From the NCBI RefSeq assembly GCF_963921235.1, contig NC_086108.1, positions 48,424,001 through 48,488,000 on the forward strand: 64,000 nt of DNA, in the 5' to 3' direction. This DNA comes from Mobula hypostoma (lineage: Eukaryota). The notes below the pieces were generated by a model. That model searched no databases. It saw nothing but the letters and a program-made list of their open reading frames with translations, and had not been told where the DNA came from. The position numbers and the translations under genes were made by a program. Shown here in pieces: positions 20,101 to 57,400 of the stretch; the first letter of the stretch is position 1; the number at the start of each line of letters is the position of its first letter.

Positions 20101-23100
20101 GTATGATGTAAGAGTTGGCCAGCTTTGCAGGAGACGTTCGACAGCTAGATGAAGAGAGAGCCATCGTGTGCAAACATGACGCAGAATTTCACACCACTCA
20201 ATGTCAACAAAGGCAAAAAATGAATGCAGGTCCTCTCCTTGGGAAGCAGATATTGAGAAGTGGCTGTAGACCTTGAGAATAATTGTCTCAATATCCACTG
20301 ACAGCTGACCACAGGCGCGTTTGCAGGCCTGATGAGCTATGTGAGCTGAGCAATTAGCTTTCAGAATGCGATTGTTGGCCCTGCTCAGTAACCAGTAAAC
20401 TGAGTGTGGTTTTCCAAAGTTTACATTGGCTTTATCTGCTGCATAGGCTGTGATGTGTCTAATATCCAGTTCATACTTTTCCAGACAGCTCATCAGAGCT
20501 TGATGTATGCCATTTGCAGTTTCATAAAAGTTTCATACTGTCTTCATAAAAGTCAAGTAACTTACACTGCACTCCATCAGACAGAGAGAAATATCTCACG
20601 CACACTGGAAACATTTTTCTATCTCCCCTGTTTGAGGCATTGGTGCCAACTGAGAAATACGCGGGGTCCGTGGGCTCACCTTCTTCGGTCAGGGACAGAT
20701 CATCCATAATATCCCGCACAGTCTTTGGTCCTAAAACATTCATTGTAATCATCTCGGCTTTCGCTCTTCCCAAGTGCATCTTCTTCACAACATTTGAGTT
20801 GTTAAACAAAGCACCGTTGAGCTTAGCAAGACAGTAGGTGCTGTTGTAGCTGAGTCCGTTTTTAACCGTATGATACACATATGAGGCTTCACTTGCCGCG
20901 ATTTTGTCATTTTCCGCAGTAGATTTCACGAAGAATGCACCAATATTGTTTGCACCTTTAGCTAGTGTGGCCTTTTTGTGCAGTTGTGTGGAAGCATGCT
21001 GAGTTAGGTCATTCTCACTTCCATGGCCAATTGAGAATTCCCGACGGCATAAAGACTCGTCGACGTCGAGTCACCGCTGACGGGCTTAACCCACGTCGTT
21101 TTTCCTTCCCATTGCTTGTTACAGCTGCACAGTCTTTTCTTTTTTGGCGGTTTATCCATATTGGCTCATGCCAAACCAACCAAACAACACCGGACGTTAC
21201 TGAAACTTTTTGTTTTGACAGGAATTGGCAAAATATAGCACACAACTGATGCGCATAAGGGGACCTGTGATTGGATGACAGGTGAATCACTTGTGCGTGG
21301 CGTCAACAGCACATACAACACGCACACACGCTGTTGTATCAGATCTAGGATCTGTCTGTAAGCGTGCCCTCTGGTGATTACAGAGTAGTAGCAGTCAAAT
21401 ACTGGACAAGGGCGGTCCCGTATGGGACAAACCAGTTTAGCCCAATATACAGGATGTCCCGGCTAATACGGGACAGTTGGCAACCCTAGTTGAGAGGGAA
21501 AATAAATCAGCTGTAATCAAAGAGCAGAGCAGACCTGATGGGCCAACTGGCTTAATTCTGCTCTTGTTTCTTACAGCTTTATGGTCAAAGCTGTGGTACT
21601 CTATGACTACCAGATCCTACGATCTCCCTCATCACCTACTGATTGTAATGCCTCCCTCTTTCTTTGTCCAGTTGCCCTAGTCTAGAGAGTACCCTGCGGC
21701 CAGCTGTTTGTTCCCCAGTACTGGCCTGTACTCATCTCACCGTGCCAATCGACTGCAGCCACTAGCCCCACATCCCATCACCGAACAACTACATCACTCA
21801 CCACAGCTTAACTATGTCAACCCTGTGGTGTGACTCGTTACTGAGAGAGTGCAAGCAGAAGGTAGGCAGTTACTCCAGGAGTGCAGCACAACAGTAGGAA
21901 GGGCAAGGAGTCACACCAAGTACGTAGCCGAAGTTAATGCCAAGTTTCAGTGTTATGTACCTGTGCATGTATAACCTCAAGCACTGCAATAAATCAGCAC
22001 TCCAGGAGGCAGCACCAGACAGGGTGTCAGTGTAATGGCAGGCCCAGACCGTTCCACTGAAGTGCCATTTTGCATTCAAATAAAAGTGGAAACAGCTGGA
22101 TAGGTGTGGAGAGAAAGACAGCTCCTAGAGCATAAAGGAGGAGCGATACTGGTACAAAATGTCTGCCTAAACTGGAAATGATTCTCTCTATCTCCATTTG
22201 CCAAAAGATCTGAGTTTGCAATTCTGGTTTTATTTCAGGTTGAATATATAACCTAAGAATAATATTTGGGCTCAGAAGTCAAGTTTAATTGGAAGTCTTA
22301 GGTTAATCCATATCCTAAGGAACTCTTCACACTTGTTATTTCCTGATTTGAACTTGATAATTAGCTTAACTTAATTGACTTGAGCAACAATCAAGTATTC
22401 CCATTGGGGAGCTTGCATGAAAAGACGTGGGATAGACACCTGAGTCAGCAGCATCAATGGTAAAAATAGCCAAAAATGTAACCACAACAAATACCGTTGT
22501 CCCCAACCCCCAAATCCAGGTGAAGCTAGATAGTCAGAACTATTTATTATTATAAGGCAGGACACTGGGGCTGAGAGGAACATTGGATCAGCCATGATGA
22601 AATGGCAGAGCAGATTCGATGGGGCAAATGGCCTAATTCTGCTCCTTTACCTTATGGTTTTATGGTCTATCACTCTTTCACAGAATTGTGCGGGCCCAGG
22701 TGTCAGATGATGGGACGTACACTTGCGTGGCATCTAATCGAGCTGGTGTGGACAACAAGCATTACAACTTAATAGTGCATGGTGAGTTTACTAACAGGGA
22801 TCATGCATTACTTTACAGCATTCTCTTAGTCTGTAGTTTCTAAGCATATGTTGTGGAAAAGAGTTTATTTACATTGCAAATTTGAATCGTTGAACAGTTT
22901 CATTGGCACAGGAGACTGCTGTAAGGGTGAACAGCAATGAGGCCACAGGCAGTGATCCTGCATTATTGACTATTTATCACGTGGCAGCTGCTTTTCCCAT
23001 TGTGCAGAAAGGTCGCATCCTTTAACAGTCTTCTTCCCTTCCCTTGGGTTCCCCAGCACCCTGCCTTCTTGAAACTCTGGGCTCACCTGGACACCCAGGG

Positions 23101-26100
23101 ACTGCTGCCTAGGATTTATTTTATTGAACAAGGGTAATATCGTGTGTCTCATGGGTTGAATTTATTATGTGTGTGTATTTGATTTAGTGGGTATGGCAGA
23201 TCGATATGTGAACAGGGCAGCACAGTACGGACCCTTTGGCCCGTGATGTTGTGCCAGACATCAGTCTAACCATTCCCGCCGACACAGTCCGTAACTTTCC
23301 ATTTGTCTTTCATCCATGTGCCTAACCAAGACTCTCAAATGTCCCTAATATATCAGCTTCTACTACCATTCCTGGCAGTGCCTTCAAGGCACCCACAACT
23401 CTTTGTGTAAAGAAAACCCTACCTCTATGATATCTCCCCAAAACTTTCTTCCACTCACCTTAAAAGTATGTCCTCTGGTATTAGCCATGGCCATCCTGAG
23501 GAAGAGGCACTGGCTGTCCACTCTATTTATGAGCATGCGTATAAAGAACATGTTTGCAATGTTGAATGAGACAAGCAGGGATAAACTCCCGCACAGACTA
23601 CACATTCACCGTAACATACATCAAAGTTGCTGGTGAACGCAGCAGGCCAAGCAGCATGCTGCTTGGCCTGCTGCGTTCACCAGCAACTTTGATGTATGTT
23701 GCTTGAATTTCCAGCATCTGCAGAATTCCTGTTGTTTACACATTCACCGTAGTTATTGCATGAGCAGAGTCAAAACGATTCATTACTTTCCATTGTTTTC
23801 TTTGCCGAACGCAGTCCCTCCAAGGATGGATGGCGCTGGTAGCATCAAAGACCTCACGATAGTGAAGGGGAATCCAGCAGCCCTAACATGCATCACTGAT
23901 GGAATACCAATGCCAACATTAGCCTGGCTGAAAGAAACACAACCTCTTAAGCTGAGTCCTCACATGACAGTTGGAAACCAGGGAATGTCACTGCAGATTT
24001 CTGCAGCGGAGGTGGAAGACAGTGGAACATACACCTGTGTGGCTGTCAGTGAAGCTGGGGAGGTCAGCAAACACTTCAGCTTGAAAGTGCTTGGTAAGTC
24101 AGACATAACACACCACCACGAATGAAGGAAAGCTCTGGCAAATAAGTCTGGGCACTGGCCATGGGCAATTGATGGAGGCAGCCATCTCCTAGGCAGAGAG
24201 ACATCAGAAGTTTGTTCTACGGAAAAATCCCCATGGTCAGAGTTCACAGATATATCATTGATAGTTGCCATTGCATCATCTGCTGCTGCAGAAATGGCAA
24301 GTGGTAAATTTTGACACTAAAGCCAGTCACAGTGGTAAGACAATGCATGAAGATTAACTGGCCTACAGAGTGAAAAGTTAAAAACATATGACTAGTTTTA
24401 TTATCGGTTTTGATTTTTTAACTTATTTGTTTAAGAAACTTAGTTTCCATGCATTGGATCACTTGCTTCACTCTTTTACAGAATTTCAAGAAAACTCGTT
24501 TAAGTTTTATTTTATGGCATATTGCAGATCCACCTCATATTAATGGCTCTGATTTTGCGGAGGAAACCTCTGTGGTGGTGAACAATCCCTTAGAACTTCA
24601 GTGTGTTGCCACGGGCATCCCAGCTCCCAAATTGACCTGGATTAAGGATGGACGACCACTGCCTCAGACAGACACCATTCACGTTCTCCGTGGTGGCGAA
24701 GTGTTGAGAATAGAGAACGCTCAGGTGTGGTGCAAGCTCCTATGCAAATTGGCTCTTTCTCTGTAATAGTTGCAAACAGTGTGGAGACATGTGATGATTG
24801 CATATTTCATTGCAGGCTTTGCTTTAACACTAGAGCTTGCAGAAGGAATGCATTAATAGACCTGCTTTAAATAATCTTTATCACTGTAATTAAATAAGTT
24901 ATCGTCAAATGTTTTAGTGTTCACAGAGAGATACTAATACTATTTGCGCCATTGAGGAAATAAAACTTACAAATCCCGATAGTTTTTAAAATCCGGCATA
25001 TTAGATACTTCTGGAAATATTTCTGAAGGTCCAAAAAGGAGGTGCAATTATACACTGGTTTTCTCAGACACGATGTGTATTTTGGAAAGTCTTCCCAAAC
25101 AATGAGCTGCTCCATCAGCAGGAGGAGTATTCCCGCTTCTCAAACCACAGCCTACTGTCACATTGCCCTAGATGTCAGGCACAGTCCTCCTTCCACCCAT
25201 CTACTGTCAAATGGACCCCTTATCTCTTCCAGCGCACAGCACCGCTCCCCTAACCCCTGCCACACGATGTTAGGAAGCAGACTGTCTTCAGTAGCAGGAG
25301 TGGGTTTCACTTGGGGGAAGTGCCTAGTTAGGCGCAATATTTCAAGGTAGGGCTTTCCCCTGCTGGTGATCCCCATCTGAGAAGCACTGGGTGTGCCTGA
25401 GAAAAGGAAAATTTAATAGAACCCTTGAGGGCAAGACTGGAGAAAATTTGACGGAGGGCTAGAGACCAACAAAGGGAGGGGTCTGAGACCAAGTGATCAC
25501 TGGTATCTCTCTCCTCCTCCACTTTGTCTCTCCCGTCCTCTCTCCACTCCTCTCCCCCTCTCTCCCTCCTTTCTCTCTCTCCCTCCTTTCTCTCTCTCCC
25601 TCCTTTCTCTCTCTCCCTCCTTTCTCTCTCTCCCTCCTTTCTCTCTCTCCCTCTTTTCTCTCTTTCCCTCTCTCTCTCTCTCTTCTACATCTCTCCACAC
25701 CCCCTCTCTCTCGATCCAAACATTAAATATTCCTTTACCCACTCTATTTCTCCATTTCACCCCACCCCTCATCAATTATTCTCTCTGATCTGAGCCAGAC
25801 CTGCCCATGAAGATCCTTCCTCTTGTAATTCCCGTGCCTATATTCACTCCCACTGTTTCATTAGTAAGGAGCCTGGTGGGATAAAAAGCCATGTCCTGCT
25901 CCTACTCTCTGCTGTCTATGATTCTAAGGATAGGCCATGCCTTGTAGTGTGTAGTTCTCAGCCACATGGATATTGAACAGTTTATGGCAGGATGCAGGAT
26001 TTTTAAAGAATTGTTTTCTAAAACTGAAGTCCTCAAAAATGTAATGGTTTATACATTGGGTTTTATAACCTATGTGGTAGAATTGCTAATGTACCTCTGT

Positions 26101-36400: not shown

Positions 36401-39400
36401 TTTATCTAGCTAGTTTATGTCAACCCTTCATTGGATCTGACCCAAGGCTACTTTAGCTCATTAATCTTCCACCAAAGGAGAATTTGTGCCTTATGTCACC
36501 TTTTTCTCTCCCAGAGCCAGACCCATTCAAATCAGTTCTGGCCGCCTCAAGCCAGTTGCTGAGCTCAGGTTACTTTAGTGCACAGATAGCTCTTTTCAGC
36601 TCTACTCACCTGGCCAACAGAATTACACGAAGGCCAGGCCGTATACGGTGACATAATTACTCCCTGAAAGACTGTGACCAAACTAATTAGCTTTTAGTAA
36701 CAACTGTGATATCAAGCTTTTTTCCAGATTTGTAACAATACAATTTAACTTGTCAAATTCTTAATCCACTATGATGGGATTTGAGCCTGGCCCTTCCGAA
36801 ATGATAGCTGAGACTTTTGGATTACCATTTGGGAGGCACGACCATGTTCCTGCCATCCACAGCCCATTGCCTCTACTTAAATGCTCACATCGTGTTGAAA
36901 ACCACCTGCTTAAATCTATATCCTGCTAGTCTTTTGTACATCTAGCTGGACAGCAGTTGTTAACCAAAGACCTTATGTGGGATTGTAAACTCTGCAAAAT
37001 GTTAAACCAGAAAATGCACAGTTGCTGCTGCAATCTACAAGTAACTAATTGGTCCTGAAGCACAGGTACTAATGAAAAGACAAAAGAGAAGCCCTATTTA
37101 GATGCACTTCCTGTTTCTTTTTTTTAAACCAGGTATTCCTTCTCAGAGGATGGTTCATTGCATATTGGCTCAGCTCAAGTAACAGATACAGGCCGTTATC
37201 TATGTATGGCAACCAATGCAGCAGGAACAGCTCGTAAGAGAATTGATGTACAGATCTATGGTAAATGCATTTCAAATCATTGGCATAAATTGCTGATAGC
37301 ATCTTGGATCCTATCTGATTTGCTGTTAAAGGTCTTGAACCTATGCACAGGGAGGTTTCACTTTCAAAATAGAAGGCTGCTTCTTTTAAAAACGCAAACA
37401 ACAGGAATTCTGCAGATGCTGGAAATTCAAGCAACACACATCAAAGTTGCTGGTGAACGCAGCAGGCCAGGCAGCATCTCTAGGAAGAGGTACAGTTGAC
37501 GTTTCAGGCCGAGACCCTTCGTCAGGACTAACTGAAGGAAGAGTGAGTAAGGGATTTGAAAGTTGGAGGGGGAGGGGCAGATCCAAAATGATAGGAGAAG
37601 ACAGGAGGGGGAGGGATGGAGCCAAGAGCTGGACAGGTGATTGGCAAAAGGGATATGAGAGGATCATGGGACAGGAGGTCTGGGAAGAAAGACAAGGTGG
37701 GAGGGGAACCCAGAGGATGGGCAAAGGGTATATTCAGAGGGACAGAGGGAGAAAAGGGAGAGTGCGAGAAAGAATGTGTGTATATAAATAAATAACAGAT
37801 GGGGTACGAGGGGGAGGTGGGCATTAGCGGAAGTTAGAGAAGTCGATGTTCATGCCATCAGGTTGGAGGCTACCCAGACGGAATATAAGGTGTTGTTCCT
37901 CCAACCTGAGTGTGGCTTCATCTTTACAGTAGAGGAGGCCGTGGATAGACATGTCAGAATGGGAATGGGATGTGGAATTAAAATGTGTGGCCGCTCTGTC
38001 CGCCAGAGAAAGCAGGATCTCCCAGTGGCCACACATTTTAATTCCATATCCCATTCCCATTCTGACATGTCTATCCACGGCCTCCTCTACTGTAAAGATG
38101 AAGCCACACTCAGGTTGGAGGAACAACACCTTATATTCCGTCTGGGTAGCCTCCAACCTGATGGCATGAACATCGACTTCTCTAACCCGCTAATGCCCCA
38201 CCTCCCCCTCGTACCCCATCTGTTATTTATTTATATACACACATTCTTTCTCGCACTCTCCCTTTTCTCCCTCTGTCCCTCTGAATATACCCCTTGCCCA
38301 TCCTCTGGGTTCCCCCCTCCTTGTCTTTCTTCCCGGACCTCCTGTCCCATGATCCTCTCGTATCCCTTTTGTCAATCACCTGTCCAGCTCTTGGCTCTAT
38401 CCCTCCCCCTCCTGTCTTCTCCTATCATTTTGGATCTCCCCCTCCCCCTCCAACTTTCAAATCCCTTACTCACTCTTCCTTCAGTTAGTCCTGACGAAGG
38501 GTCTCGGCCTGAAACGTTGACTGTACCTCTTCCTAGAGATGCCGCCTGGCCGGCTGCGTTCACAGGCTGCTTCTTTTGAAGTCACATCAGCTATAAGTGT
38601 CTTCAGTTAAGTTATTTTATTAGAGTTACAGCTTGGAACAAGTCCTAATGGACCTTTGAGCTGCACCAGCCAACAACCCACCGATTTAATCGTAGGCTGA
38701 TCACGGGACAATTTGCAATGCCTGATTAGCTTACTAACCGGTAAATCTTTTGATTGTGGGAGGAAACTGGAGCACCCTGGGAAAAACCCATGCACACATA
38801 GGAAGGAACGTACAAACTCACTTACAGAGGACGCCGGAACTGCGCTCTGAACTCCAACGCCCCGAGCTGCTGTGCGAACCACTAAACCACTGTGACACCC
38901 CATTGTAAAATCAGTTGATAATGTGAGGCAGAATCCCATGCAATGCACATTTTATTTTATCTTTGTCTGCTTTTAGATTAACATAGAAATGCTAAAAATA
39001 GGAGCAGGAATAGAGCATTTGTCCCCCAGCACTGCTCTGTCATCTCAATACCACATTTCTGCTCTCACAGGGAAGATCAACTTCTGTATTTTGTACTAGA
39101 ACAGGCTGAGGAATCTCAGGAGACCTGCTACTTTCCAAATAATTGTAAACAATTAAAAACATTGGGAAGAATTTTTCACATGAGCAAATAAACTTTACTT
39201 CTTGAATAGAATGAGTTTCCTAAGCCCCTTAATTGCAATACCACCCTTATCATGTGTATTTCTTTGTTAAATTTGATTTTTGTTCATCAGGCACTTCAGA
39301 CCCATTTACGAATGATGCTTCATTTTCTGGCACATAGTTTACACTGTTCCTATAAAAGGTCACTAAGATGAAAGGTTATCATTTTTCTCTCTCCACAAAT

Positions 39401-42400: not shown

Positions 42401-45400
42401 TTAATAACTAGAGTAGTTGCGGGTTAATTGCAACACATCAGGATTAGAACATTTTGGCACAGTTAAGCCGCTGCCATAATTGGTCGAAGTCTCATGGAAA
42501 CAGTTAAAATGGTATAAAAGGACAAACTGAGTAGTAAATTATGTATTAAATTAAATAATGGAACAAATTAGAACACTACCAATAGTACTACAGTATAAAA
42601 CTGTGTATTAGTGCCTAATAGTAATCAATAGAAGAATTCATCCCTAATGCACAATGAGCAAAATCATTACGGACACCAAGTGCAGATAATGGATTGACTT
42701 CATACAATGTTACCAATGACTGCATTCTCCAAATACTCACTTTAATTGTAACATTCAGCATGACTGTTGATGCCTTCAAATTTTTTATAGTTCCTAACTT
42801 GTTGAAGTAGTGAAATCATTTAATTTTCACTCCTGGACGATTCTGGTATCTCCAAGCCTGAATGTTTGAAAGGACAGTGAGAAAAACAGTTCTGAATTGT
42901 CTTGCTGCTTATTCCTCGTCAACTGTCACTGACAAAAAAAATCACTTTTTTAATGCACAATACACACATTACTGATGCCATTAAACAACTGATCACTCTA
43001 AGTGCAGTGTAGCATCTAACAGCCACAGAAGAGCACGTGACTGGTGCTAGTTAGAACTTATACGGCAACAGTCTCCAGTGGCAAAGTGTCCCAAATAAAT
43101 GAAAGGAATCCCTGCAATTTTCTCAATTAGTTTTTGTCCTTTAAGAGTTGTCCCAAATAAGTGACTGCTCCAATTAGCCAATGGCCAATTAAGTGGAATC
43201 CACTGTATTACCCATAGTAATATTAATGGAACCACAATTTATTAAAGTAAGTTAGTCAATTCTTTACTCTGAAAAAAATATATTGTGAGTTTTGATATCA
43301 ATCCAGATGTACATGAAGGGGGAATGGCCACTCTCCACTTCCCTTCACAAATACTGCTGAATTTATATTCCTCTGTACACTCATGTATCAGGTCACATCA
43401 CCTGTTGCATAAAATATGCAGAGTCCCATTGATACAAATAACCTCTCAGTATGGAATTCCATCTGTTGCTATTGGAATCATTTACCTCAGTTAATAACTT
43501 GCTGCGATTTAATGTTTATTGCTATACTTAGAAAAATGGTTGGTTAATTAGACCATAAAACCAAAAGATAGAGCTGCAGAATCGAAGCGGCTCTGCTATT
43601 TCATCATGGCTGTTCCAATTTTCCTCTCAGCCCCAATCTCCTGCCTTCTCCCTGTATCCCTTCATGCCCTGACCAATCAAGGATCTATCAACTTCTGCCT
43701 TAAATATACATAAAGACTTGGCCTCCACCTCTGCCTGTGGCAAATAATTCCACAGATTCAACACTCTCTGGCTAAGGAAATTCCTCCTCATCTCCGTTAT
43801 AAAAGGACACCCCTCTATTTTAAGGGTGCGGACCTAGACTCTCCCACCATAGGAAACATCCTCACCACATCCACTCAATCAAAGCCTTTCACTATTCCAA
43901 AAATGCTGGTGAACGCAGCAGGCCAGGCAGCATCCATAGGAAGAGGTACAGTCGACATTTTGGGCGAGACCCTTCGTCAGGACTAACAAATTTCCTCATG
44001 TTTGCCTTTCACTATTCAATAGGTTTCAATGAGGTTACCCCTCGTTCTTCTGAATTTTAGTGAATACAGGCCCAGAGCCATCAAACACTCTTCATATGAC
44101 AAGACATTCAATCATGAAATCATTTTCATGAACCTCCTTTGAACCCTCTCCAGTTTCAGCACATCCTTTCTAAGATAAGAAGCCCAGACCTGCTCACAAT
44201 ACTCCAAGCGAGGCCTCACCAGTGCTTTATAAAGTTGCAACATTATATCCTGTCTTTTATATTCTAGTCCTCTTGAAATGAATGCTAACATTGCATTTGC
44301 CTTTCTCACCACAGACTCAATGTGCAAATTAACCTCTAGGGAAGCATGCACAAGGACTCCCAAGTCCCTTTGGACCTCAGTATTTTGAATTTTCACTTCA
44401 TTTAGAAAATAGTCAAACCTTTCTTTTCTCCTACCAAGGTGCATGACCATACACTTCCCGACAGTGTATTCCATCCGACATTTCTTTGCCCATTCTCCTA
44501 ATCTGTCTAAGTCCTTTTGTAGAAAAATAAGTACATTCCCCTCCACCTCTCTTCATATTGTCTGCAACTTTTACAACAAAGCCATCAATTCCGTTATCCG
44601 AATCACTGCCATACAACATAAAAAGAATTGGTCCCAACATATACCCCTGTGGAACACCAGTATTCACCAGCAGCCAGCCAGAAAGGGCTCCCTTTATTCC
44701 TTCTCTTTGCCTCCTGCCAATCAGGCACTGCTTTATCCATGCAAGAAACTTCCTTGTAATGCCTCATATATGGCACCTTATCAAAGGCCTTCTGAAAATC
44801 CAAGTACGTTACATCAACTGATTCTCCTTTGTCTATCCTGCTTGTTATTTCTTCAAAGAATTCCAACAAATTTGTCAGGCAAGATTTTCCCTTAAGGAAA
44901 TCATGCTGACTATGGCCTAATTTATCATGTGCCTCCAAGTACCCTGAGACCTCATCCTTAATAATCGACTCCAATATCTTCCCAACCATTGAGGTCAGAC
45001 TAACTGGCCCATTGTTTCCTTTCTTCTGACTTTCTCCCTTCTTGAAAAGTGGAGTGACATTTGCAATTTTCCTGTCTTCTGGAACCATTGCAGAATCTAA
45101 TGATTCTTGAAAGATCATTACCGATGTCTCCATGATCTCTTCAGCCACCTCTTTCACAACTCTGGGGTGTACACCATCTGGTCCAGGTGACTTATCTACC
45201 TCCAAATCTTTCAATTTCCCAAGAACCTTCTCTCTAATTATGGTAACTTCACACACATGCCCGCTGACTCCTGGAACTTCCACCATACTGCTAATGTTTT
45301 TCACAGTGAAAACTGATGAAAAATACTTATTCAGTTTGTCCACCATTTCATTGTCCCTCATTACTACCTCTCCAGCACCTTTCTTCAGCAGTCCAATATC

Positions 45401-48400
45401 CACTCTCGCTTCTCTTTTACACTTTATGTATCTGAAGAAACTTTTGGTATCCTCTTTAATATTATTGGCTAGCTTACTTCTGTATTTCATCTTTGCCATC
45501 TTAATACTTTTCTAGTTGCCTTCTGTTGATTTTAAAAGCTTCACAATCGTCTAACTCTCCACTAGTTTTTGTGCTATTATATGCCCTCTCTTTGGCTTTT
45601 ATGTTGGCTTTGACATCTCCTGCTAACCACAGTTGTGTCATCTTTGCTTTGGATTACGTCTTCCTCTTTGGGATGTATATATCTTGTGCTTTCCAAATTC
45701 CTTCCAGAATTCCAGCTATTGCTGCTCTGTCATCGTCCCTGCCCATGTTATTTTCCAATTAATTTTGGCCAATTCCTCTCTCATGCCTCTGTAAATCCCT
45801 TTATTCCACTCTAATACTGATACATCTGACTTTAGCTTCTCCTTCTCAGGTTTCAGGGTGAATTCGATCATATTATGATCACTTGCTCTAAGGATTCTTT
45901 TACCTTAAGCTCCCTAATCAGTTCCGGTTCATTGCACAACACCCAATCCAAAATAACTGATCTCTAGTGGGCTCAACCATGAGCTGCTCTAAAAAGCCAT
46001 CTCGTAGGCATTCTAGAAATTGCCTCTCCTGTAATCCAACACCAACCTGATTTTCCCAATCTACCTGCATATTAAAGTACATGACCATTGTAACATTGTC
46101 CTTTTGGCATGTATTTTCTATCTCCCATTGTAACTTGTAGGCCATATCCTTACTACTGTTTGGAGGTTTGTATACAACTCCTACCAGGGTCTTTTCACCC
46201 TTGCAGTTCCTTAGCTTTGACCGCAATGATTCAACACCTTCTGGCCTTATGTCACCTGTTTCTTATGATTTGATCTCATATTTTACCATAGGGTAACGCC
46301 ATACCCTCTGCCTTCCTGCCTATTCTTTTGATACAATGTATACCCTTGGATATTAAGCTCCCAGCTATAATCTTTCAGCCACCTACAACATCATACCTGC
46401 CAATTTGGAACTGTGCTGCAGGTTCATCTACCTTATTCCATAATCTGCACATATTGAAATACACCTTCAGTCCTGTATTCAACCTTTTCAATTTTGTCCG
46501 CCTTTTACATTGCGACATATTCTGTTGACTACAATGTTGCCCTATCAACAGCCTCCCCTCACTACACATTGCCTCTGTTTGTAAACCAGCTAGCTCATCA
46601 TCAGCACTATTATCGGCCTTTCATATGATACTTATTGCATTGAAATATAGGCAGCTCAGGACACTGGTCACACCATGCTCAACCTTTTGATTCCTAACTC
46701 TACCTGAGGTCTTGCCAATATCTACCTCCACAACCTCTTCATTAACTGTTCTGGCGCTGTGGTTCCCATCCCCCTGCAACTCTAGTTTAAACCCCACCGT
46801 GCAGCATTAACAAACCTTCCCGCTAGAATATTGACCCCCTCCAGTTCAGGTGCAAGCCGCCCTTTCTGTACAGGTCCCACCTTCCTGGAACAATCCAAAT
46901 ATCTTATGCCTTCCCTCCTACACCAACTCCTTAGCTATGTATTAAACTGTATTAGTTGGTTTAAAATGTGGATGGGAATAAAAAGACATCTGTAACTGTG
47001 TGTGTATGTGTCTTTGATTGTGTTAGTTCATGTGCATTTTTCAGGTTAAGATCATCTCCATTCCAACTCATGGGTAACTGCCACACTCATGTTCAAGTAA
47101 AAACTGAAAAATTAGTGTTGAGTGGTTTTTGTTTGGAAGTTGGGTTCATTAATATCAAAGCTACTTATTTTTCCTACCAATAAAATGCCTCTTGACAAGA
47201 GTGCCAGTTGTTCTTCTTGTGTTTGATTGATTCAGCTCAAGTAGAACTATTGGCCCTAAGGATCATCAGAGTCTCTTTTCCACCCATCTGAGATATTTAT
47301 CAGGAGTGCTGTTTACTCAGGGCCCTTGCCACTGTCCATGATCCTTCCCATCCATTCAACAATCTCTTTGATCCTCTACTATCAGACAGGAGGTATGATA
47401 GCATTAAGACAAGGACTTTTAGAATGAAGAAACAGCTGCTTCCCCTGGGCTGAGAGGACTGCTGAACTCCCAGCCACCACCCAGATCTTATCACATATGA
47501 GGCGGCAGAAGTATTATACTGTTTGTTTTTTAACTTGTGTAGTAAATGCACCTTATTATTTCTTAATTTAATGTTGGCAATATTACTTTGTATTGCATGT
47601 GTGAATTATATGTACTGTATTGTGCACCTTGGTCCGGAGGAGCATTGGTTCGCTTGGCAGTATACATGTGTACAGTTGAATGTCAATAAACTGAACTTGA
47701 ACTTTCTGTTTAGTTCCTCCTTCAATTGCTGATGAGGCGACTGATTTGTTGGTAACACGGTTGACACCAGCTGTTATTACTTGCACTGCCTCTGGTGTCC
47801 CAGAACCAAGGATTCACTGGACCAAAGATGGGGTCAGGCTGCCAGCACAAGGAGAAGGCTATCTCATTCTCTCCACAGGTAATAGTGTGAACAGATTCCT
47901 TGAAGTTCTGGAAATTATGGAGGGGTACAATACCTGAAAGATAGAGAAAAGTAAGCTTCTATATATAAGAACTGATAATCTGCCAGAATAAAAATAAGAA
48001 TCCATTCTTTGTTTGCCAAGAAGCTGCAATGTTGTACCTGCTGCTTGATGGTAGTAATGAGAAGAGGGCATGTCCTGGATGTGAGGGTCTTTCTGCCTTT
48101 TTGAGGCACTGCCTCTTGAAGATGTCTTCATGGTGGGGAGGCTCGTGCCGGTGACAGAGCTGGTTGAGTCTACAAACTTCTGAAGCCTCTTATCATTCTG
48201 TGCATTGGCGCCTCCATACCAGGGGATGATGCAACCAGTCAGAGTGCTGTCCACAGTACATCTGTTCAAATTTGCCTTTGGTGACATACCACATCTTCTC
48301 AAACTCCTAATGAAGTGTAGCTGCTGGCGTGCCTTCATTGTGATTACATGAACATGGTGGGCCCAGGGTAGATCCTCTGCAATGCTGATATCCAGAAACT

Positions 48401-51400
48401 TGAAGCTGTTCATCCTTTCCACCACTGACCTTTCAGTGAGGATTGGTGCAGCTCCCCTGACTTCCCCTGTTTGAAGTCTACAATCAGTTTTTGCTGACAA
48501 TGAATTCAAGGTTAATATTGCGATACCACTGGGAATGAGCTATCAGCCAATATTAAGCATAAAGTTTATACATGGAGAATATATTGATTGGCTACATCAT
48601 AACCTAGTATGGAAACACCAAGGCTTTTGAATGGAAGATCATATAAATTGAGCATGCGGAATACTAAGGACATTAAGGATATTTTCCTATATAAAGACAC
48701 ACCGCAGAGATTAAGTCAGCCTGCAAGTAAAAATATATTTTCATTGACTTTAAATTTTAAGGAAGATTTTATCCATTTTAATTATTTTGTTACTTTTCTG
48801 ATTACTTTAACATGTAGGCACCTTTTGGCTTGTGACAGATCTTTATTATTGTACAACAAGTAAACTATAAATATATTATTATTGTACAGTTAGCTTTTCT
48901 TTCACCACAACTTCTTGTTAATTCAGGAACAATTGAGATCAGTGCTGCCCAGCTCAATCACACAGGAAGATACACATGTATTGCAAAGAATGCTGCTGGC
49001 TCTGCACGTAGGCAAGTCAATCTCCGTGTGCAAGGTAGGTAGTTATATTTACACAATTTTATTTCCATGATCAGGAATTAAAACACCATTCATTGTGAAG
49101 TAAATTACTTTTGTTTTCATCACTATTCCTTCCCAATATCACAGTCATGCCAATTTACTCAATCATTCAAGGGACTATTTAATCAGTTGTATAAGAATCT
49201 CCAGTCACCGGGAGTTTATTGCATTGCTTTTCTTTGTTGGATTGCATAATTTTGAAATCAAACATATTGTAAGCATATAGCTCTTCAAGAAAGAACAACT
49301 ATTTGCAACTCCAGTTGGTTTTAGACTGAGCTAATAGTCACATTTCAGAACACTCTCTACTTTTACTTACTCTTAGGACTCTTAACTTTGGCCTTAGTTT
49401 TATCTACTATTGAAAAGTAGGTTTAACTTGTTCAACCAAATTCTGGCCATCATACCTCCTCCCAGTCTGGAAGCGAGATTGTCAGAGATACTCTCACCCA
49501 GGTTCTTACTCATACAGTCTCAATCAGCGCTTATGTTTCATGGCTTTCAATAGGTACAAGTTGAAATTTCAAATCCTCATCCTAGCCTTCAAATCTGTAT
49601 GTGATATCACTCCTGGCCTTTTTTTCAGTAACCTCTAGCTTTACAAACCTTGTAGATATTTGTGCTCCTCCAAATCTGATCTCCAGATCAAACCCACCAT
49701 TGGCAGCTTTACTCTGAGCTGCCAACACTTTGGAATTCTCTGTGAAACTGCTCCCCTATCCATCTTTCCTCCTTTTAAGATTCTCCTTGAGAGGTGATCT
49801 TAATGAAACACACAAGACTCCTGCTGACATGAAAGGATAAATATCAAAATGTTGTCACAATTGAGGAACTCAAACAATGGGACATAGTTAGAAGATTAGT
49901 CGTTGGTCATTTAAAAACTGAGGTGTGGAGGAATTTGTTCTTGCAGAGCATGAAGAACCTCTGGAATTCTCTACCCTGGAGGTTTGAAGAGGCTAGATCT
50001 TTTAGGATATGTAAAAGAGAAGTAGATAAAATTTTGAACAGTCAGGGAAGAGAGGCTGATGGGGAACTGACACAAAGGAGACATGTGAGTACAGGGCAGG
50101 CCTGAGGGGCCAAAACACCTCTGCATACTGCTGTATTCTTATGTTCTGAAGTTTTATATCCATCTTATTTCCCTGTCCAGTTGCTTCACTCCAATGGCTT
50201 TCGATTTCTTTACACTTCCCAGTACCATTTCATTTATTTTATATTTCTTTGTTGCATTTAGACTAATTACGTTTTTCTGCACAGTTGACTAGATAATTTT
50301 TTCTCCTTCCTCAGTCAAAAGTTTTCCCTCTCCTATGAAGCACACAGCTGAACTCCCCCCTCTGATCCCAGCTCTCATCCGTGCCGGATCTTTACCATCC
50401 CCTCCGACCTTCAACTGTCTGAGGCAGAACGCTCTGTCCTCAGTAAGGGCCTCACTTTTGTCCCCCTTCGCCCACACCTCAGCGAGTTCCGTGTTCGCCA
50501 TGATGCGGAACTCTTCTTCTGCCGTCTCCGTCTCCAAGCCTACTTCTTGGCAAGGACTCTTCCACCCCCACCGATGATCCCTTCTCCCGCCTTCAACCCT
50601 CCTCCTCTTCATGGACACCCCTACTCTGGTCTTCTGCCTGCCCTGGATCTCTTTATTGCTAACTGCGAACGGGACATCAACCGTCTCGACTTCACCACAC
50701 CTTGTTCCAATTCCAACCTCACTCCTTCCGAACACTCTGCTCTCCACTCCCTCCGCACTAATCCTAACCTTATTATTAAACCCGCCGATAAAGGGGGTGC
50801 TGTTGTAGTCTGGCGCACTGACCTCTACCTTGCCGAGACACAGCGACAACTCACAGATACCTCCTCTTATTTGCCCCTCGATCGTGACCCCACTAAGGAG
50901 CACTAGGCCATTGTCTCCCACACCATCGCCGACTTTATCCGCCCAGGGGATCTCCCACCCTCTGCTACCAACCTTATAGTTCCCACACCTCGCACTTCCT
51001 GTTTCTACCTCCCACCCAAGATCCACAAACCTGCCTGTCCTGGCAGACCTATTGTCTCAGCTTGCTCCTGCCCCACCAAACTCGTTTCTGCATACCTCGA
51101 CACGGTTTTATCCCCCCTTGTTCAATCCCTTCCTACCTATGTTTGTGACACTTCTCACACTCTTAAACTTTTCGATGATTTTAAGTTCCCTGGCCCCCAC
51201 CGCTTTATTTTCATCATAGATGTCCAGTCCTTATATACTTCCATCCCCCATCAGGAAGGTCTCAAACCTCTCCGCTTCTTTTTGGATTCCAGACCTAATC
51301 AGTTCCCCTCTACCACCACTCTGCTCCATCTAGTGGAATTAGTCCTTACTCTTAATAATTTCTCCTTTGGCTCCTCCCACTTCCTCCAAACTAAAGGTGT

Positions 51401-54400
51401 AGCTATGGGCACCCGCATGGGTCTGAGCTATGCCTGCCTTTTTGTTGGCTTTGTGGAACAATCTATGTTCCATGCCTATTCTGGTATCTGTCCCCCACTT
51501 TTCCTTCGCTACATCGACGACTGCATTGGCGCTGCTTCCTGCACGCATGCAGAGCTCGTTGACTTTATTAACTTTGCCTCCAACTTTCACCCTGCCCTCA
51601 AGTTTACCTGGTCCATTTCCGACACCTCCCTCCCCTTTCTAGATCTTTCTGTCTCTATCTCTGGAGACAGCTTATCTACTGATGTCTGCTATAAGCCTAC
51701 TGACTCTCACAGCTTTCTGGACTATGCCTCTTCTCACCCTATCTCTTGCAAAAATGCCATCCCCTTCTCGCAATTCCTCCGTCTCCGCCGCATCTGTTCT
51801 CAGGATCAGGCTTTTCATTCCAGGACGAGGGAGATGTCCTCCTTTTTTAAAGAAAGGGGCTTCCCTTCCTCCACCATCAATTCTGCCCTCAAACGCATCT
51901 CCCCCATTTCACACACATCTGCTCTCACTCCATCCTCCCGCCACCCCACTAGGAATAGGGTTCCCCTGGTCCTCACCTACCACCCCACCAGCCTCCAGGT
52001 CCAACATATTATTCTCCGTAACTTCCGCCACCTCCAACGAGATCCCACCACTAAGCACATCTTTCCCTCCCCATCGATTGGGGAGCTTTCCACAGATTGC
52101 TCCCTACGCGACTCCTTTGTCCATTCGTCCCCCCCATCCCTCCCCATCGATCTCCCTCCTGGCACTTATCCTTGTAAGCAGAATAAGTGCTACACATGCC
52201 CTTACACTTCCTCCCTTACCACCATTCAGGGCCCCAGACAATCCTTCCAGGTGAGGCGACACTTCACCTGTGAGTCGGCTGGGGTGATATACTGCATCCG
52301 GTGCTCCCGATGTGGCCTTCTATATATTGGCGAGACCCGACGTAGACTGGGAGATAGTTTTGCTGAACACCTACGGTCTGTCCACCAGAGAAAGCAGGAT
52401 CTCCCAGTGGCCACACAATTTAATTCCACATCCCATTCCCATTCTGACATGTCTATCCACGGCCTCCTCTACTGTAAAGATGAAGCCACACTCAGGTTGG
52501 AGGAACAACACCTTATATTCCATCTGGGTAGCCTTCAACCTGATGCCATGAACATTGACTTCTCTAACTTCAGCTAATGCCCCACCTCTCCCTCCTACCC
52601 CATCCATTATTTATATACACACACGTTCTTTCTCTCACTCTCCTTTTTCTCCTTCTGTCCCTCTGACTATACCCCTTGCCCATCCTCTGGGATCCCCCCC
52701 CCCACTTTTCCTTCTCCCTGGGCCTCCTGTCCCATGATCCTCTCATATCCCTTTTGCCAATCACCTGTCCAGCTCTTGGCTCCATCCCTCCCCCTCCTGT
52801 CTTCTCCTATCATTTTGGATCTCCCCCTCCCCCTCCCACTTTCAAATCTCTTACTCACTCTTCCTTCAGTTAGTCCTGACGAAGGGTCTCGGCCTGAAAC
52901 ATCGATTGTACCTCTTCCTAGAGATGCTGCCTAGCCTGCTGCGTTCACCAGCAACTTTGATGTGTGTAGCTAAACTTTGGGTCAGCTACAGATTTCTCGA
53001 TCGTGCCCCCTGCATATACCTCTCCCCACAATAAAAGTCAAGAGACTAGTTTTGAGACCTGTAGAACCCACTGGTAACAATCCTCCGGTCACAAAAGCAC
53101 AACTCAACCACTATCCTAAGCAGAGTTTGAATCCAATTTCCCATGAATCCTATGCATTTCAACTTTTTTGCCCACTCTGCCATGCTGACCTTAGTCAAAA
53201 ACTTCACTGAAATCCGTTTGACCTACTACAGTCATTCCTCTCATCAACTCTACTTCTTACTTTCTGAAAAAAAATCAGTCAAGTTGGTCTTTATTCTCTG
53301 GAGCACAGGTGAATGAGGGGAAATCATATTGAGGTATACAAAATTATGGGGGTTATAGGAAGGGTAAATGTTTGCAGGTTAAGTAGAACTGGAATTAGAA
53401 AGCATAGGTTTAGGGTGAAAAGTGAAATGTATAAGGGAAATATGATGGGGAGCTTCTTCACTCAGAGGATTGTGTGAGGATGGAACAAGCTGTCAGCATA
53501 AGTGATAGATGTGAGGTTAATTGTAATATTTAAGAGAAGTTTGGGTAGGTACATGGACGAGAGGGTTATGGAGGGATATGATCCAGTTGCAGATAGAGGA
53601 AACTAGGCAGAAGACCAGGCTGGCATGGAGTAGATTCAAGTACGTTTATTATCAAGGAACGTAAAAATTATACAACCTTGAGATTTGCTTGCTCACAGGT
53701 AGCCACAGAGCAAGAAACACAAAAACATAGAAACATAGAAACATAGAAACATAGAAAATAGGTGCAGGAGTAGGCCATTCGGCCCTTCGAGCCTGCACCG
53801 CCATTTATTATGATCATGGCTGATCATCCAACTCAGAACCCAGCCTTCCCTCCATACCCCCTGACCCCTGTAGCCACAAGGGCCATATCTAACTTCCTTT
53901 TAAACATAGCTAATGAACTGGCCTCAACAGTTTGCTGTGGCAGAGAATTCCACAGATTCACCACTCTCTGTGTGAAGAAGTTTTTCCTAACCTCGGTCCT
54001 AAAAGGCTTCCCCTCTATCCTCAAACTGTGACCCCTCGTTCTAGACCTCCCCAACATCGGGAACAATCTTCCCGCATCTAGCCTGTCCAATCCCTTTAGG
54101 ATCTTATACGTTTCAATCAGATCCCCCCTCAATCTTCTAAATTCCAACGAGTACAAGCCCAGTTCATCCAGTCTTTCTTCATATGAAAGACCTGCCATCC
54201 CAGGAATCAATCTGTTGAACCTTCTTTGTACTCCCTCTATGGCAAAGATGTCTTTCCTCAGATTAGGGGACCAAAACTGCACACAATACTCCAGGTGTGG
54301 TCTCACCAAGGCCTTGTACAACTGCAGTAGTACCTCCCTGCTCCTGTACTCGAATCCTCTCGCTATAAATGCCAGCATACCATTCGCCTTTTTCACCGCC

Positions 54401-57400
54401 TGCTGTACCTGCATGCCCACTTTCAATGACTGGTGTATAATGACACACAGGTCTCGTTGCACCTCCCCTTTTCCTAATCGGCCACCATTCAGATAATAAT
54501 CTGTTTTCCTATTTTTGCCACCAAAGTGGATAACTTCACATTTATCCACATTAAATTGCATCTGCCATGAGTTTGCCCACTCACCCAACCTATCCAAGTC
54601 ACCCTGCATCCTCTTAGCATCCTCCTCACTGCTAACACTGCCACCCAGCTTTGTGTCATCCGCAAACTTGGAGATGCTGCATTTAATTCCCTCGTCCAAG
54701 TCATTAATATATATTGTAAACAACTGGGGTCCCAGCACTGAGCCTTGCGGTACCCCACTAGTCACCGCCTGCCATTCTGAAAAGGTCCCGTTTATTCCCA
54801 CTCTTTGCTTCCTGTCTGCTAACCAATTCTCCACCCACACCAATACCTTACCCCCAATACCGTGTGCTTTAAGTTTGCACACTAATCTCCTGTGTGGGAC
54901 CTTGTCAAAAGCCTTTTGAAAATCCAAATATACCACATCCACTGGTTCTCCCCTATCCACTCTACTAGTTACATCCTCAAAAAATTCTATGAGATTCGTC
55001 AGACATGATTTTCCTTTCACAAATCCATGCTGACTTTGTCCGATCATTTCACCGCTTTCCAAATGTGCTGTTATCACATCCTTGATAACTGACTCCAGCA
55101 GTTTCCCCACCACCGACGTTAGGCTAACCGGCCTATAATTCCCCGGTTTCTCTCTCCCTCCTTTTTTAAAAAGTGGGGTTACATTAGCCACCCTCCAATC
55201 CTCAGGAACTAGTCCAGAATCTAACGAGTTTTGAAAAATTATCACTAATGCATCCACTATTTCTTGGGCCACTTCCTTAAGCACTCTGGGATGCAGACCA
55301 TCTGGCCCTGGGGATTTATCTGCCTTCAATCCCTTCAATTTACCTAACACCACTTCCCTACTAACATGTATTTCGCTCAGTTCCTCCATCTCACTGGACC
55401 CTCTGTCCCTTACTATTTCTGGAAGATTATTTATGTCCTCCTTAGTGAAGACAGAACCAAAGTAATTATTCAATTGGTCTGCCATGTCCTTGCTCCCCAT
55501 AATCAATTCACCTGTTTCTGTTTGCAGGGGACCTACATTTGTCTTTATCAGTTTTTTCCTTTTTACATATCTATAAAAGCTTTTACAGTCCGTTTTTATG
55601 TTCTCTGCCAGTTTTCTCTCATAATCTTTTTTCCCCTTCCTAATTAAGCCCTTTGTCCTCCTCTGCTGAACTCTGAATTTCTCCCAGTCCTCAGGTGAGC
55701 CACTTTCTCTGGCTAATTTGTATGCTACTTCTTTGGAATTGATACTATCCCTAATTTCTCTTGTCAGCCACGGGTGCACTACCTTCCTTGATTTATTCTT
55801 TTGCCAAACTGGGATGAACAATTGTTGTAGTTCATCCATGCAACCTTTAAATGCCTGCCATTGCATATCCACCATCAATCCTTGAAGTGTCATTTGCCAG
55901 TCTATCTTAGCTAATTCACGTCTCATACCTTCAAAGTTACCCCTCTTTAAGTTCAGAACCTTTGTTTCTGAATTAACTACATCACTCTCCATGTTAATGA
56001 AGAATTCCACCATATTATGGTCACTCTTACCCAAGGGGCCTCTCACAACAAGATCGCTAATTAACCCTTCCTCATTGCTCAAAACCCAGTCCAGAATAGC
56101 CTGCTCTCTAGTCGGTTCCTCGACATGTTGGTTCAAAAAACCATCCCGCATACATTCCAAGAAATCCTCTTCCTCAGCACCTTTACCAATTTGGTTCACC
56201 CAGTCTACATGTAGATTGAAGTCACCCATTATAACTGCTGTTCCTTTATTGCACACATTTCTAATTTCCTGTTTAATACCATCTCCGACCTCACTACTAC
56301 TGTTAGGTGGCCTGTACACAACTCCCACCAGCGTCTTCTGCCCCTTAGTGTTACGCAGCTCTACCCATATCGATTCCACATCTTCCCGGCTTATGTCCTT
56401 CCTTTCTATTGCGTTAATCTCTTTTTTAACCAGCAACGCCACCCCACCTCCCCTTCCTTCATGTCTATTCCTCCTGAATATTGAATATCCCTGAACGTTG
56501 AGCTCCCATCCCTGGTCACCCTGGAGCCATGTCTCTGTGATCCCAACTATATCATAATCATTAATAACAATCTGCACTTTCAATTCATCCACCTTATTAC
56601 GAATGCTCCTTGCATTGACACATAAAGCCTTCAGGCGCTCTTTTACAACTCTCTTAGCCCTTTTTAATGCTTGCCCTGGATTTGTCGGCCTGCCACTTTT
56701 ACTTTTCCCCTTTGTACTTTTTGCTTCTACACTCACTTTACACCCCTCTGTCTCTCTGCACTGGTTCCCATCCCTCTGTTGTGATCTAACCTCCTCACAC
56801 CTAGCCGCTTTAATTTGATTCCCACCCCCCAACCATTCTAGTTTAAAGAATCCAATTAAAAAAAAAAGTAAAAACAAAAATAAAGGACCACAACACTCAA
56901 TGCGCAAGAGACAAAGAAATACGAGCCATGCAAACAATTGAGGCAAACAACAGCATTCTGAACCAAGAATGAGTCCTCAGATCCACAGCCCAGAGCAGCT
57001 CCAAAGCCTCACTTATCAGCTCATCATATTAGCGATGAAATGGAAGAAAAGCCTGCATCTGAGCAGTGGCAGTCTGTGACTTTGGTCAGACATGACCTTC
57101 CCTGAACAAAATAACGTAGCCTGTCCTCAATTAATCTATTTTTTCCTAAATTAATGTTTACTGTTGTGCAGAATACATTCTGATAATTAAACAAGCAGAT
57201 TGAATCAAATTTCTTAGTTTATCCCTTCCCCTACAGTTTCTTCTCTTCTTTGTTTTAGCTGATTGAGATGTATTTCATTCAAAACTAGAAGCTTATCCAC
57301 TTTTCCCGATGCTAATCCCAGTAATACTTTCTCTTTTTAAGGCATTATCTGTCCAATATTTCACACTCTTTCTCCTTATCTACAGCATTGGTATTATCCA

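Follow-up and report, generated by a model that had tools for sequence, protein, structure and literature searches.

Retrotransposons that lack long terminal repeats (non-LTR elements), or long interspersed nuclear elements (LINEs), have been described as reaching their second open reading frame (ORF2) in several ways. Mammalian L1, whose ORFs do not overlap, tolerates any sense codon at the start of ORF2 and can dispense with AUG (PMC1965478); Bombyx SART1 uses a UAAUG stop-start (PMC3708506); and in both TRE5-A and TRE3-A, L1-group elements of Dictyostelium, translation of ORF2 depends on a -1 frameshift, according to a review (PMC5911963). CR1, which with more than 410,000 fragments outnumbers every other interspersed repeat in the chicken genome (PMC11835228), is widespread in other animals as well, and the literature covered does not address how its ORF2 is translated. 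We analyzed two CR1-type elements, copies A and B, in a 64,000-nucleotide stretch of Mobula hypostoma contig NC_086108.1 (assembly GCF_963921235.1, positions 48,424,001 to 48,488,000; hereafter the window), which is animal DNA rich in retroelements. CR1 subgroup 7 with ORF1 type IVB (Metcalfe and Casane 2014, PMC4120745) shares with them an esterase ORF1, an endonuclease-reverse transcriptase ORF2, an octamer tail and 5' truncation; the text of that paper, as far as covered, makes no mention of frameshifting or ORF overlap, so the junction signal described below is an addition. We propose, with a probability of roughly 0.85, that in CR1-type LINEs with a U_UUA_AAC-type junction ORF2 is produced fused to ORF1, through programmed -1 frameshifting. 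An earlier note on this DNA had suggested such a fusion in place of reinitiation, and comparison with relatives supports it through the arrangement of the two frames, the phase-specific heptamers, the opening of the -1 frame near the site, and ORF1 proteins that end in Leu-Asn (LN) or Phe-Leu (FL).

The junction of copy A (53713-56848, minus strand, as are all features of both copies) consists of a slippery heptamer, U_UUA_AAC (56841-56847), that fits the X_XXY_YYZ pattern and is followed immediately by a zero-frame UAG stop (56838-56840) homologous to the ORF1 stops of copy B and of a relative, L003. The heptamer and stop are present exactly as the earlier note had them, and so is the -1 reading, TTT AAA CTA GAA TGG, which stays open through to the ORF2 stop at 53833. 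Counted from the heptamer, ORF2 is intact over 1004 codons (53833-56847) and encodes an endonuclease (amino acids 91-280) and a reverse transcriptase (amino acids 564-781), with matches to Pfam PF03372, PF14529 (AP-like endonuclease) and PF00078 (reverse transcriptase). An open -1-frame linker of 71 codons without AUG (56635-56847) leads from the heptamer to the endonuclease, and, again as noted earlier, there is no Met before AVIMGDFN: the first ATG is codon 207 (56229). A start there would delete the endonuclease Asn (codon 78) and Glu (codon 105), both invariant in an alignment of 11 endonuclease domains, because both lie upstream of it. The 10-mer T TTA AAC TAG has exactly two matches in the window, 56838-56847 and 46782-46791, and both are CR1 junctions (0.25 expected; 2 of 100 shuffles reach two). 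The G-rich motif reported downstream of both junctions also held, starting 10 nucleotides after the heptamer in each copy; at no more than one mismatch it has three matches in the window against 0.08 expected, the third further along the copy A linker.

Copy A itself has no ORF1. We found no ORF1 similarity upstream of 56848, where the DNA is unrelated flank, and the element is 5'-truncated at the heptamer (56845-56848), with CTTT probably a microhomology between flank and element; a search for a target-site duplication found no second copy of the flank within the window. What had been called an ORF1/ORF2 junction at this position is thus sound for the heptamer and the ORF2 side and lacks the ORF1 side, and for this reason the frame relationship is directly visible only in copy B. 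Four public sequencing runs, mapped on 56500-56960 and read as contigs (small-share runs X19-X22 left out), show that the copy A family is highly repeated. Contigs of other copies from two other runs match as far as 56848 and no further, and no variant of at least 5% is listed at 56808-56848 in the four runs, so the TTT of the heptamer is element-encoded; a flank origin for it is ruled out by the same contigs. A candidate TGA variant in the linker at 56797 makes up 11%, 50%, 0% and 4% of depth in the four runs, and in run X11 it equals in depth and contig count a change at 56799 that turns the codon into Arg. Elsewhere in the family, a 27-nucleotide frame-keeping insertion in the linker at 56656 is seen in an X10 contig and as loose ends in the other three runs, and in X5 a broken subfamily can be recognized by its 4-nucleotide insertion at 56538.

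Copy B supplies the missing side. Its ORF1 remnant (46785-46958) is a degenerate SGNH-esterase C terminus of the vertebrate CR1 type ending ...RWGLN* (tblastn with P0298, E 1.2e-5; profile E 2.4e-4), and U_UUA_AAC with its UAG (46782-46791) is in frame with that remnant, so that an X_XXY_YYZ heptamer in the correct phase relative to ORF1 is seen directly. Starting at this heptamer, 56 codons of the -1 frame (46624-46791) are open and free of ATG, and they end in a segment like the first endonuclease strand (alone E 0.009-0.17). The remainder of the copy (43639-46623) has a second linker and then the degenerate ORF2 of a different CR1 family. At 46623-46206 there are apparently two endonuclease starts in tandem, the first breaking off at 46623 and the second linker and endonuclease following it, which suggests that copy B is a chimeric or nested CR1.

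We retrieved relatives with the 11-domain endonuclease alignment as query, and the junction played no part in their choice. Among the best 80 of 216 confirmed metagenome loci, 36 were excluded for a missing endonuclease start, ORF2 5' end or upstream ORF of at least 150 codons. In the 44 two-ORF loci that qualified, ORF2 lies in the -1 frame relative to ORF1 in 42, in the same frame in two, and in the +1 frame in none. A second set, from a genome collection, comprised 14 contigs, evidently LINE DNA of animal type within prokaryote assemblies, of which 13 were examined and four were informative (two in -1, one in frame, one in +1). A quick tree of endonucleases places the window copy among the relatives, with five more distant proteins lying apart; U_UUA_AAC sites are scattered over this tree, whose starred branches force at least five changes. 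No relatives came up in two scans of viral contigs.

Several of these loci are arranged differently. In L087:1100, ORF2 is in the +1 arrangement and has no AUG for 125 codons into the endonuclease. In L048:1379, L086:353, L088:1230 and L032:793, ORF1 and ORF2 share a frame split by a single UGA (L086 and L088 are near-identical), and three of the four have a UGA-C context (UGA CUA G, UGA CAA), which has been called leaky (PMC3542737); stop-codon readthrough may replace frameshifting in these same-frame relatives, again yielding a fusion. LINE-type endonucleases occur in 14 contigs of bacterial and archaeal assemblies (L081-L094), that of L081, from an Aeromonas isolate assembly, being 58% identical to the window endonuclease; they are probably host contamination.

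The heptamers were compared by phase, position and spelling. We examined 41 non-redundant overlaps, the set left after removal of one near-duplicate, for strict X_XXY_YYZ sites as defined in PMC3542737. In the correct phase, 23 of 1429 overlap positions have such a site, one each in 23 of the 41 loci, compared with 4 and 5 of 1388 in the two wrong phases; outside the overlaps, the counts are 15 of 6068 for the bodies of ORF1 and 46 of 11799 for those of ORF2. When tolerated first triplets are added, 36 of 41 loci carry a correct-phase site. The ORF2 frame is open upstream of the endonuclease for a median of 54 codons (24-116), against 5.7 calculated from how often that frame has a stop within ORF1 (11.5%). 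It opens a median of five codons before the candidate site, and from the site to the endonuclease run 23-100 open codons (median 47). Counted solely where a synonymous change could produce one, -1 stops number 134 over the 30 codons that precede the site (132 expected); past the site, in the dual-coded stretch, there are 0 against 71 expected, a zero that is partly built in by construction.

The same amino acids are also spelled differently at the junction than elsewhere. Glu-Asn is written G_GAA_AAC in 16 of 18 cases in overlaps and 3 of 55 in ORF1 bodies; the corresponding counts are 4 of 6 and 0 of 43 for Leu-Asn written U_UUA_AAC, 4 of 10 and 0 of 16 for Phe-Leu written U_UUU_UUA, and 8 of 16 and 4 of 64 for the Lys-Asn spelling at the site. 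Judged from sequence comparison, the constraint at the junction is on nucleotides. The commonest heptamer, G_GAA_AAC (15 of 41 loci), alternates with G_GGA_AAC at the same position, and three of the recurrent sites, U_UUA_AAC, G_GGA_AAC and A_AAA_AAC, are counted with the heptamers on which mammalian ribosomes shift most readily (PMC5009743). The simplest reading of the phase, opening point and spelling of these heptamers is that ribosomes enter the ORF2 frame there. The alignment of junctions across CR1 relatives thus came out mostly in favor of the proposal, and the site is conserved at the nucleotide level, with support from proteins as well.

That support comes from ORF1 C termini. All 16 tabulated esterase-type junctions, both window copies included and several picked out by the heptamer itself, have U_UUA_AAC (10) or U_UUU_UUA (6) no more than 10 codons from the ORF1 end. 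Amniote-type ORF1 homologues end in LN in 87 of 120 cases, the rest being mostly truncated or frameshifted. Among 150 esterase-ORF1 cluster representatives, 134 reach the C terminus: LN is terminal in 72 and stands within 12 residues of the terminus in another 16, FL lies within the same distance in 32, and 14 lack both. LN or FL thus stands at or near the end in 120 of 134, where chance gives 6% per 14 residues. Long gene models from birds contain FKL, the -1 reading of the heptamer, in 11 of 19 cases, all 11 from one stork, and in 10 of these the same long open linker follows. An unrelated type of ORF1 carries different slippery heptamers. One of the esterase ORF1 records, P0136, is named a Klebsiella pneumoniae SGNH/GDSL hydrolase; it is a vertebrate-type CR1 ORF1 ending RALN, and probably a contaminant.

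Given these observed junctions, we infer the slip, its efficiency and its pause signal as follows. Most ribosomes would translate ORF1 to its end, decode UUA AAC and terminate at the UAG that follows, releasing an ORF1 protein (ORF1p) that ends in Leu-Asn. A minority would slip one base backward on U_UUA_AAC, re-pair on UUU AAA and so avoid the stop, and would then translate a linker of 50-90 codons followed by the endonuclease and the reverse transcriptase. ORF1p would be abundant and the polymerase scarce, in the manner of retroviral Gag and Gag-Pol. In several relatives of invertebrate type, a hairpin 5-12 nucleotides downstream may serve as the pause signal; in the window copies, that role could fall to the stop codon next to the heptamer or to a G-rich octamer lying 12 nucleotides downstream. 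A Pfam domain search found no protease domain in copy A ORF2, so the fusion may stay uncleaved.

A number of observations weigh against this reading. The sequences in the relative sets are related rather than independent, and the genome-collection set is less uniform than the metagenome set, with only two of four loci in -1, one of which (L089) has no canonical heptamer. G_GAA_AAC is not a strict consensus slippery site, and the heptamer list that covers 40 of 41 loci was picked after inspection. When similar ORF1 tails are collapsed, LN or FL is found in 43 of 57. Start codons raise a further difficulty. The earlier claim that no in-frame ATG precedes the endonuclease holds for both window copies and fails for some subfamilies, where such an ATG exists at no conserved position: 17 of 41 relatives have an in-frame AUG before the catalytic endonuclease Asn, between -95 and +3 codons from the endonuclease start, and 24 of 41 have none. 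L003 has one at codon 5, several stork gene models have one about 10 residues before the endonuclease, and at codon 5-6 a UUG or AUG is present in each of the four vertebrate-type junctions for which there is DNA (copies A and B, L003 and L060). Within the copy A family, the share of depth that has an in-frame ATG variant at codon 38 is 25%, 95%, 0% and 3% over the four runs. Finally, the downstream fold that the earlier note had suggested looking for is missing from the predictions: neither window copy has a stable one (z +0.65 and -0.18), and 18 G_G(A/G)A_AAC loci share no consensus pairs. A search for single-ORF fusion proteins is neutral on the viability of a fusion, as its 19 hits are all bird gene models that apparently hop frames or are joined to host exons.

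Structure 3' of the heptamer is part of the usual -1 frameshift signal (PMC3542737), and candidates for a stimulator differ among the relatives. Six of esterase type (L002, L004, L006, L012, L020 and L062) have hairpins 5-12 nucleotides past the site, with z from -2.5 to -6.3, and over 45 sites the mean z at the stimulator position is -0.7, against -0.05 to -0.5 at control offsets; these predictions cover hairpins and not pseudoknots. A downstream G-quadruplex, another form that had been considered, is predicted with two tiers for copy A, L003 and L060, and none is predicted for copy B. A G-rich octamer, G.G.U(A/G)G(G/A), lies exactly 12 nucleotides past the heptamer at 22 of 49 sites and at no other offset more than once. 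It is GGGGUGGG in copy A (56821-56828) and GGGAUGGG in copy B (46765-46772). Seventeen of the octamers belong to the G_G(A/G)A_AAC group, where they also encode Val-Val-Gly of ORF1, and five follow U_UUA_AAC, including those of both window copies, where ORF1 has already ended. This is a post hoc pattern that could reflect a Gly-rich linker, and the octamer is no more than a candidate 3' stimulator. By analogy with an umbravirus frameshift site that depends on a nearby stop (PMC5009743), the stop codon adjoining the heptamer may help slippage. A second G-rich junction motif, GAGGGATGGGAACC, lies within the copy A linker (56763-56776); most family copies start it with GGGG, and it is possibly a relic of an older junction.

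The start codons above would be expected if ribosomes terminated at the ORF1 UAG and restarted on a nearby AUG or near-cognate codon, producing a free ORF2 protein (ORF2p) as described for SART1 (PMC3708506) and L1 (PMC1965478). This explanation can point to the UUG or AUG at codon 5-6, to the AUGs of subfamilies, and to nine of 41 loci in which the ORF1 stop overlaps the first endonuclease codon, four of them reading UUG or CUG by eye. The other five read CUA or UUA, however, stork codon 5 is mostly Ser, and the position of the start codon is not conserved. Reinitiation also leaves unexplained the phase-specific heptamers, their fixation at the codon level and the -1 overlap, and gives no account of an ORF2 frame that, traced back from the endonuclease, stays open over 23-100 codons until the heptamer, in many cases upstream of the stop that ends ORF1; we consider it quite unlikely. 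At the window junctions themselves, no ORF1 stop coincides with an in-frame ORF2 AUG. An ATG at 56836 was rejected as an ORF2 start of the SART1 stop-start type, since it is out of frame, closes after eight codons (56810-56836) and is absent from copy B. An intermediate possibility, which overlaps our own proposal, is that frameshifting is ancestral and some subfamilies add free ORF2p from an acquired in-frame AUG. The codon-38 AUG that reaches 95% of depth in one run and the 17 loci with an AUG before the catalytic Asn would suit it, but a scatter from -95 to +3 codons is as expected of ordinary linker Met, and most such loci keep the slippery site; that both routes operate seems to us rather improbable.

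Two further explanations would remove the ribosome from the problem altogether. The frames might be joined in RNA, either by splicing, as AACUAG|G resembles a 3' splice site, or by polymerase slippage on the U and A runs. UAG does follow the heptamer at seven of ten U_UUA_AAC sites, and in bird gene models ORF1 is connected with the frame that contains FKL, apparently via predicted introns. The other three sites are nevertheless followed by UGA, UUG and UUA, the G_GAA_AAC and A_AAA_AAC classes lack an acceptor, and the homopolymer runs are just 3-6 nucleotides long. Altered RNA would moreover be copied into DNA, but the contigs, from which rare forms can escape, list neither a joint nor an indel at the heptamer. 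Alternatively, Leu-Asn could be the end of the esterase fold, with the heptamer a by-product of protein constraint or of chance. LN does follow the last esterase helix in many ORF1s, and the search profile included LN, so a slight bias is possible. But LN stays terminal even where 7-14 residues have been inserted ahead of it, and FL can take its place in the same column; rare codons are fixed, as with TTA, which makes up 17% of Leu codons in these ORF1s; and the unrelated ORF1 type has slippery heptamers of its own. Joining in RNA appears very improbable to us, and a by-product of the esterase fold or of chance hardly more credible.

We therefore favor -1 frameshifting at the junction. A wider version of the proposal is more tentative, and we regard it as doubtful: that -1 frameshifting is general and ancestral in the CR1 clade, in invertebrates, sharks and birds; that it was kept through exchanges of ORF1 with different slippery sites (U_UUA_AAC, U_UUU_UUA, G_GGA_AAC, G_GAA_AAC and A_AAA_AAC); that the vertebrate form is driven by the unstructured octamer, possibly bound by a protein such as ORF1p; and that the replicase is an ORF1-endonuclease-reverse transcriptase fusion. 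A stimulator of the unstructured G-octamer type was not met in the -1 frameshift literature covered.

The assignment to CR1 draws on several parts of the element. A 3' stem-loop followed by a terminal octamer microsatellite is characteristic of the CR1 clade. Copy A has both in its 3' untranslated region (53713-53832), as a predicted stem-loop (z -1.5) and a (TTTCTATG)n repeat of period 8 and 6.2 copies (53713-53761). By ORF1, as seen in copy B, and by ORF2 and tail, we classify copy A as a CR1-type LINE. Among named relatives of its endonuclease, a Hypanus sabinus (stingray) gene model is the closest, with 58% identity over that domain, and a 5'-truncated copy without the junction, 92% identical to copy A, lies at 14686-16784 (minus strand). 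Elsewhere in the window, several near-identical reverse transcriptase elements with a C-terminal GIY-YIG-like region form inverted or head-to-head pairs (5960-9288, 37391-38563 and 50352-52971); we take them to be Penelope-like. Broken open frames at 19265-21070 (minus strand) have the look, we presume, of a hAT-type DNA transposase, and an open frame with an immunoglobulin-like repeat at 23637-24125 (plus strand) is presumably a host-gene exon, such as one of hemicentin.

If the proposal is correct, a major LINE clade uses the retroviral Gag-Pol strategy and not L1-type reinitiation. The replicase would be an ORF1-ORF2 fusion, which would alter views of CR1 ribonucleoproteins and cis-preference, the design of engineered assays and the annotation of ORF2, and the clade would offer many natural, divergent -1 sites, some of them without predicted structure. 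In the original chicken, turtle and amphioxus CR1 papers the ORFs are reportedly close together or overlapping, and frameshifting may already have been suggested there, which would make the present reading less novel. Those papers lie outside the literature searched, in which we found no proposal of -1 frameshifting for CR1; CR1 is absent from the covered text of the Atkins 2016 review. What we describe is thus a known recoding mechanism in a LINE clade for which we found no such account, apparently clade-wide and in part without a structured stimulator.

The nearest parallels outside LINEs are retroviral gag-pol and coronavirus ORF1a/1b (PMC3542737, PMC5009743), which have the same class of heptamer, the same -1 layout and the same logic of a rare polymerase fusion; U_UUA_AAC itself is the frameshift site of the coronavirus IBV (PMC5009743). 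The CR1 junctions differ in that the host element is a LINE and the window copies have no predicted hairpin. Among non-LTR elements, TRE5-A and TRE3-A use the same -1 strategy as proposed here, in another clade and another host. Mammalian L1 and SART1 likewise express little ORF2 product from a two-ORF LINE RNA, whereas in the CR1 elements the frames overlap at a slippery site and the start codon is not conserved.

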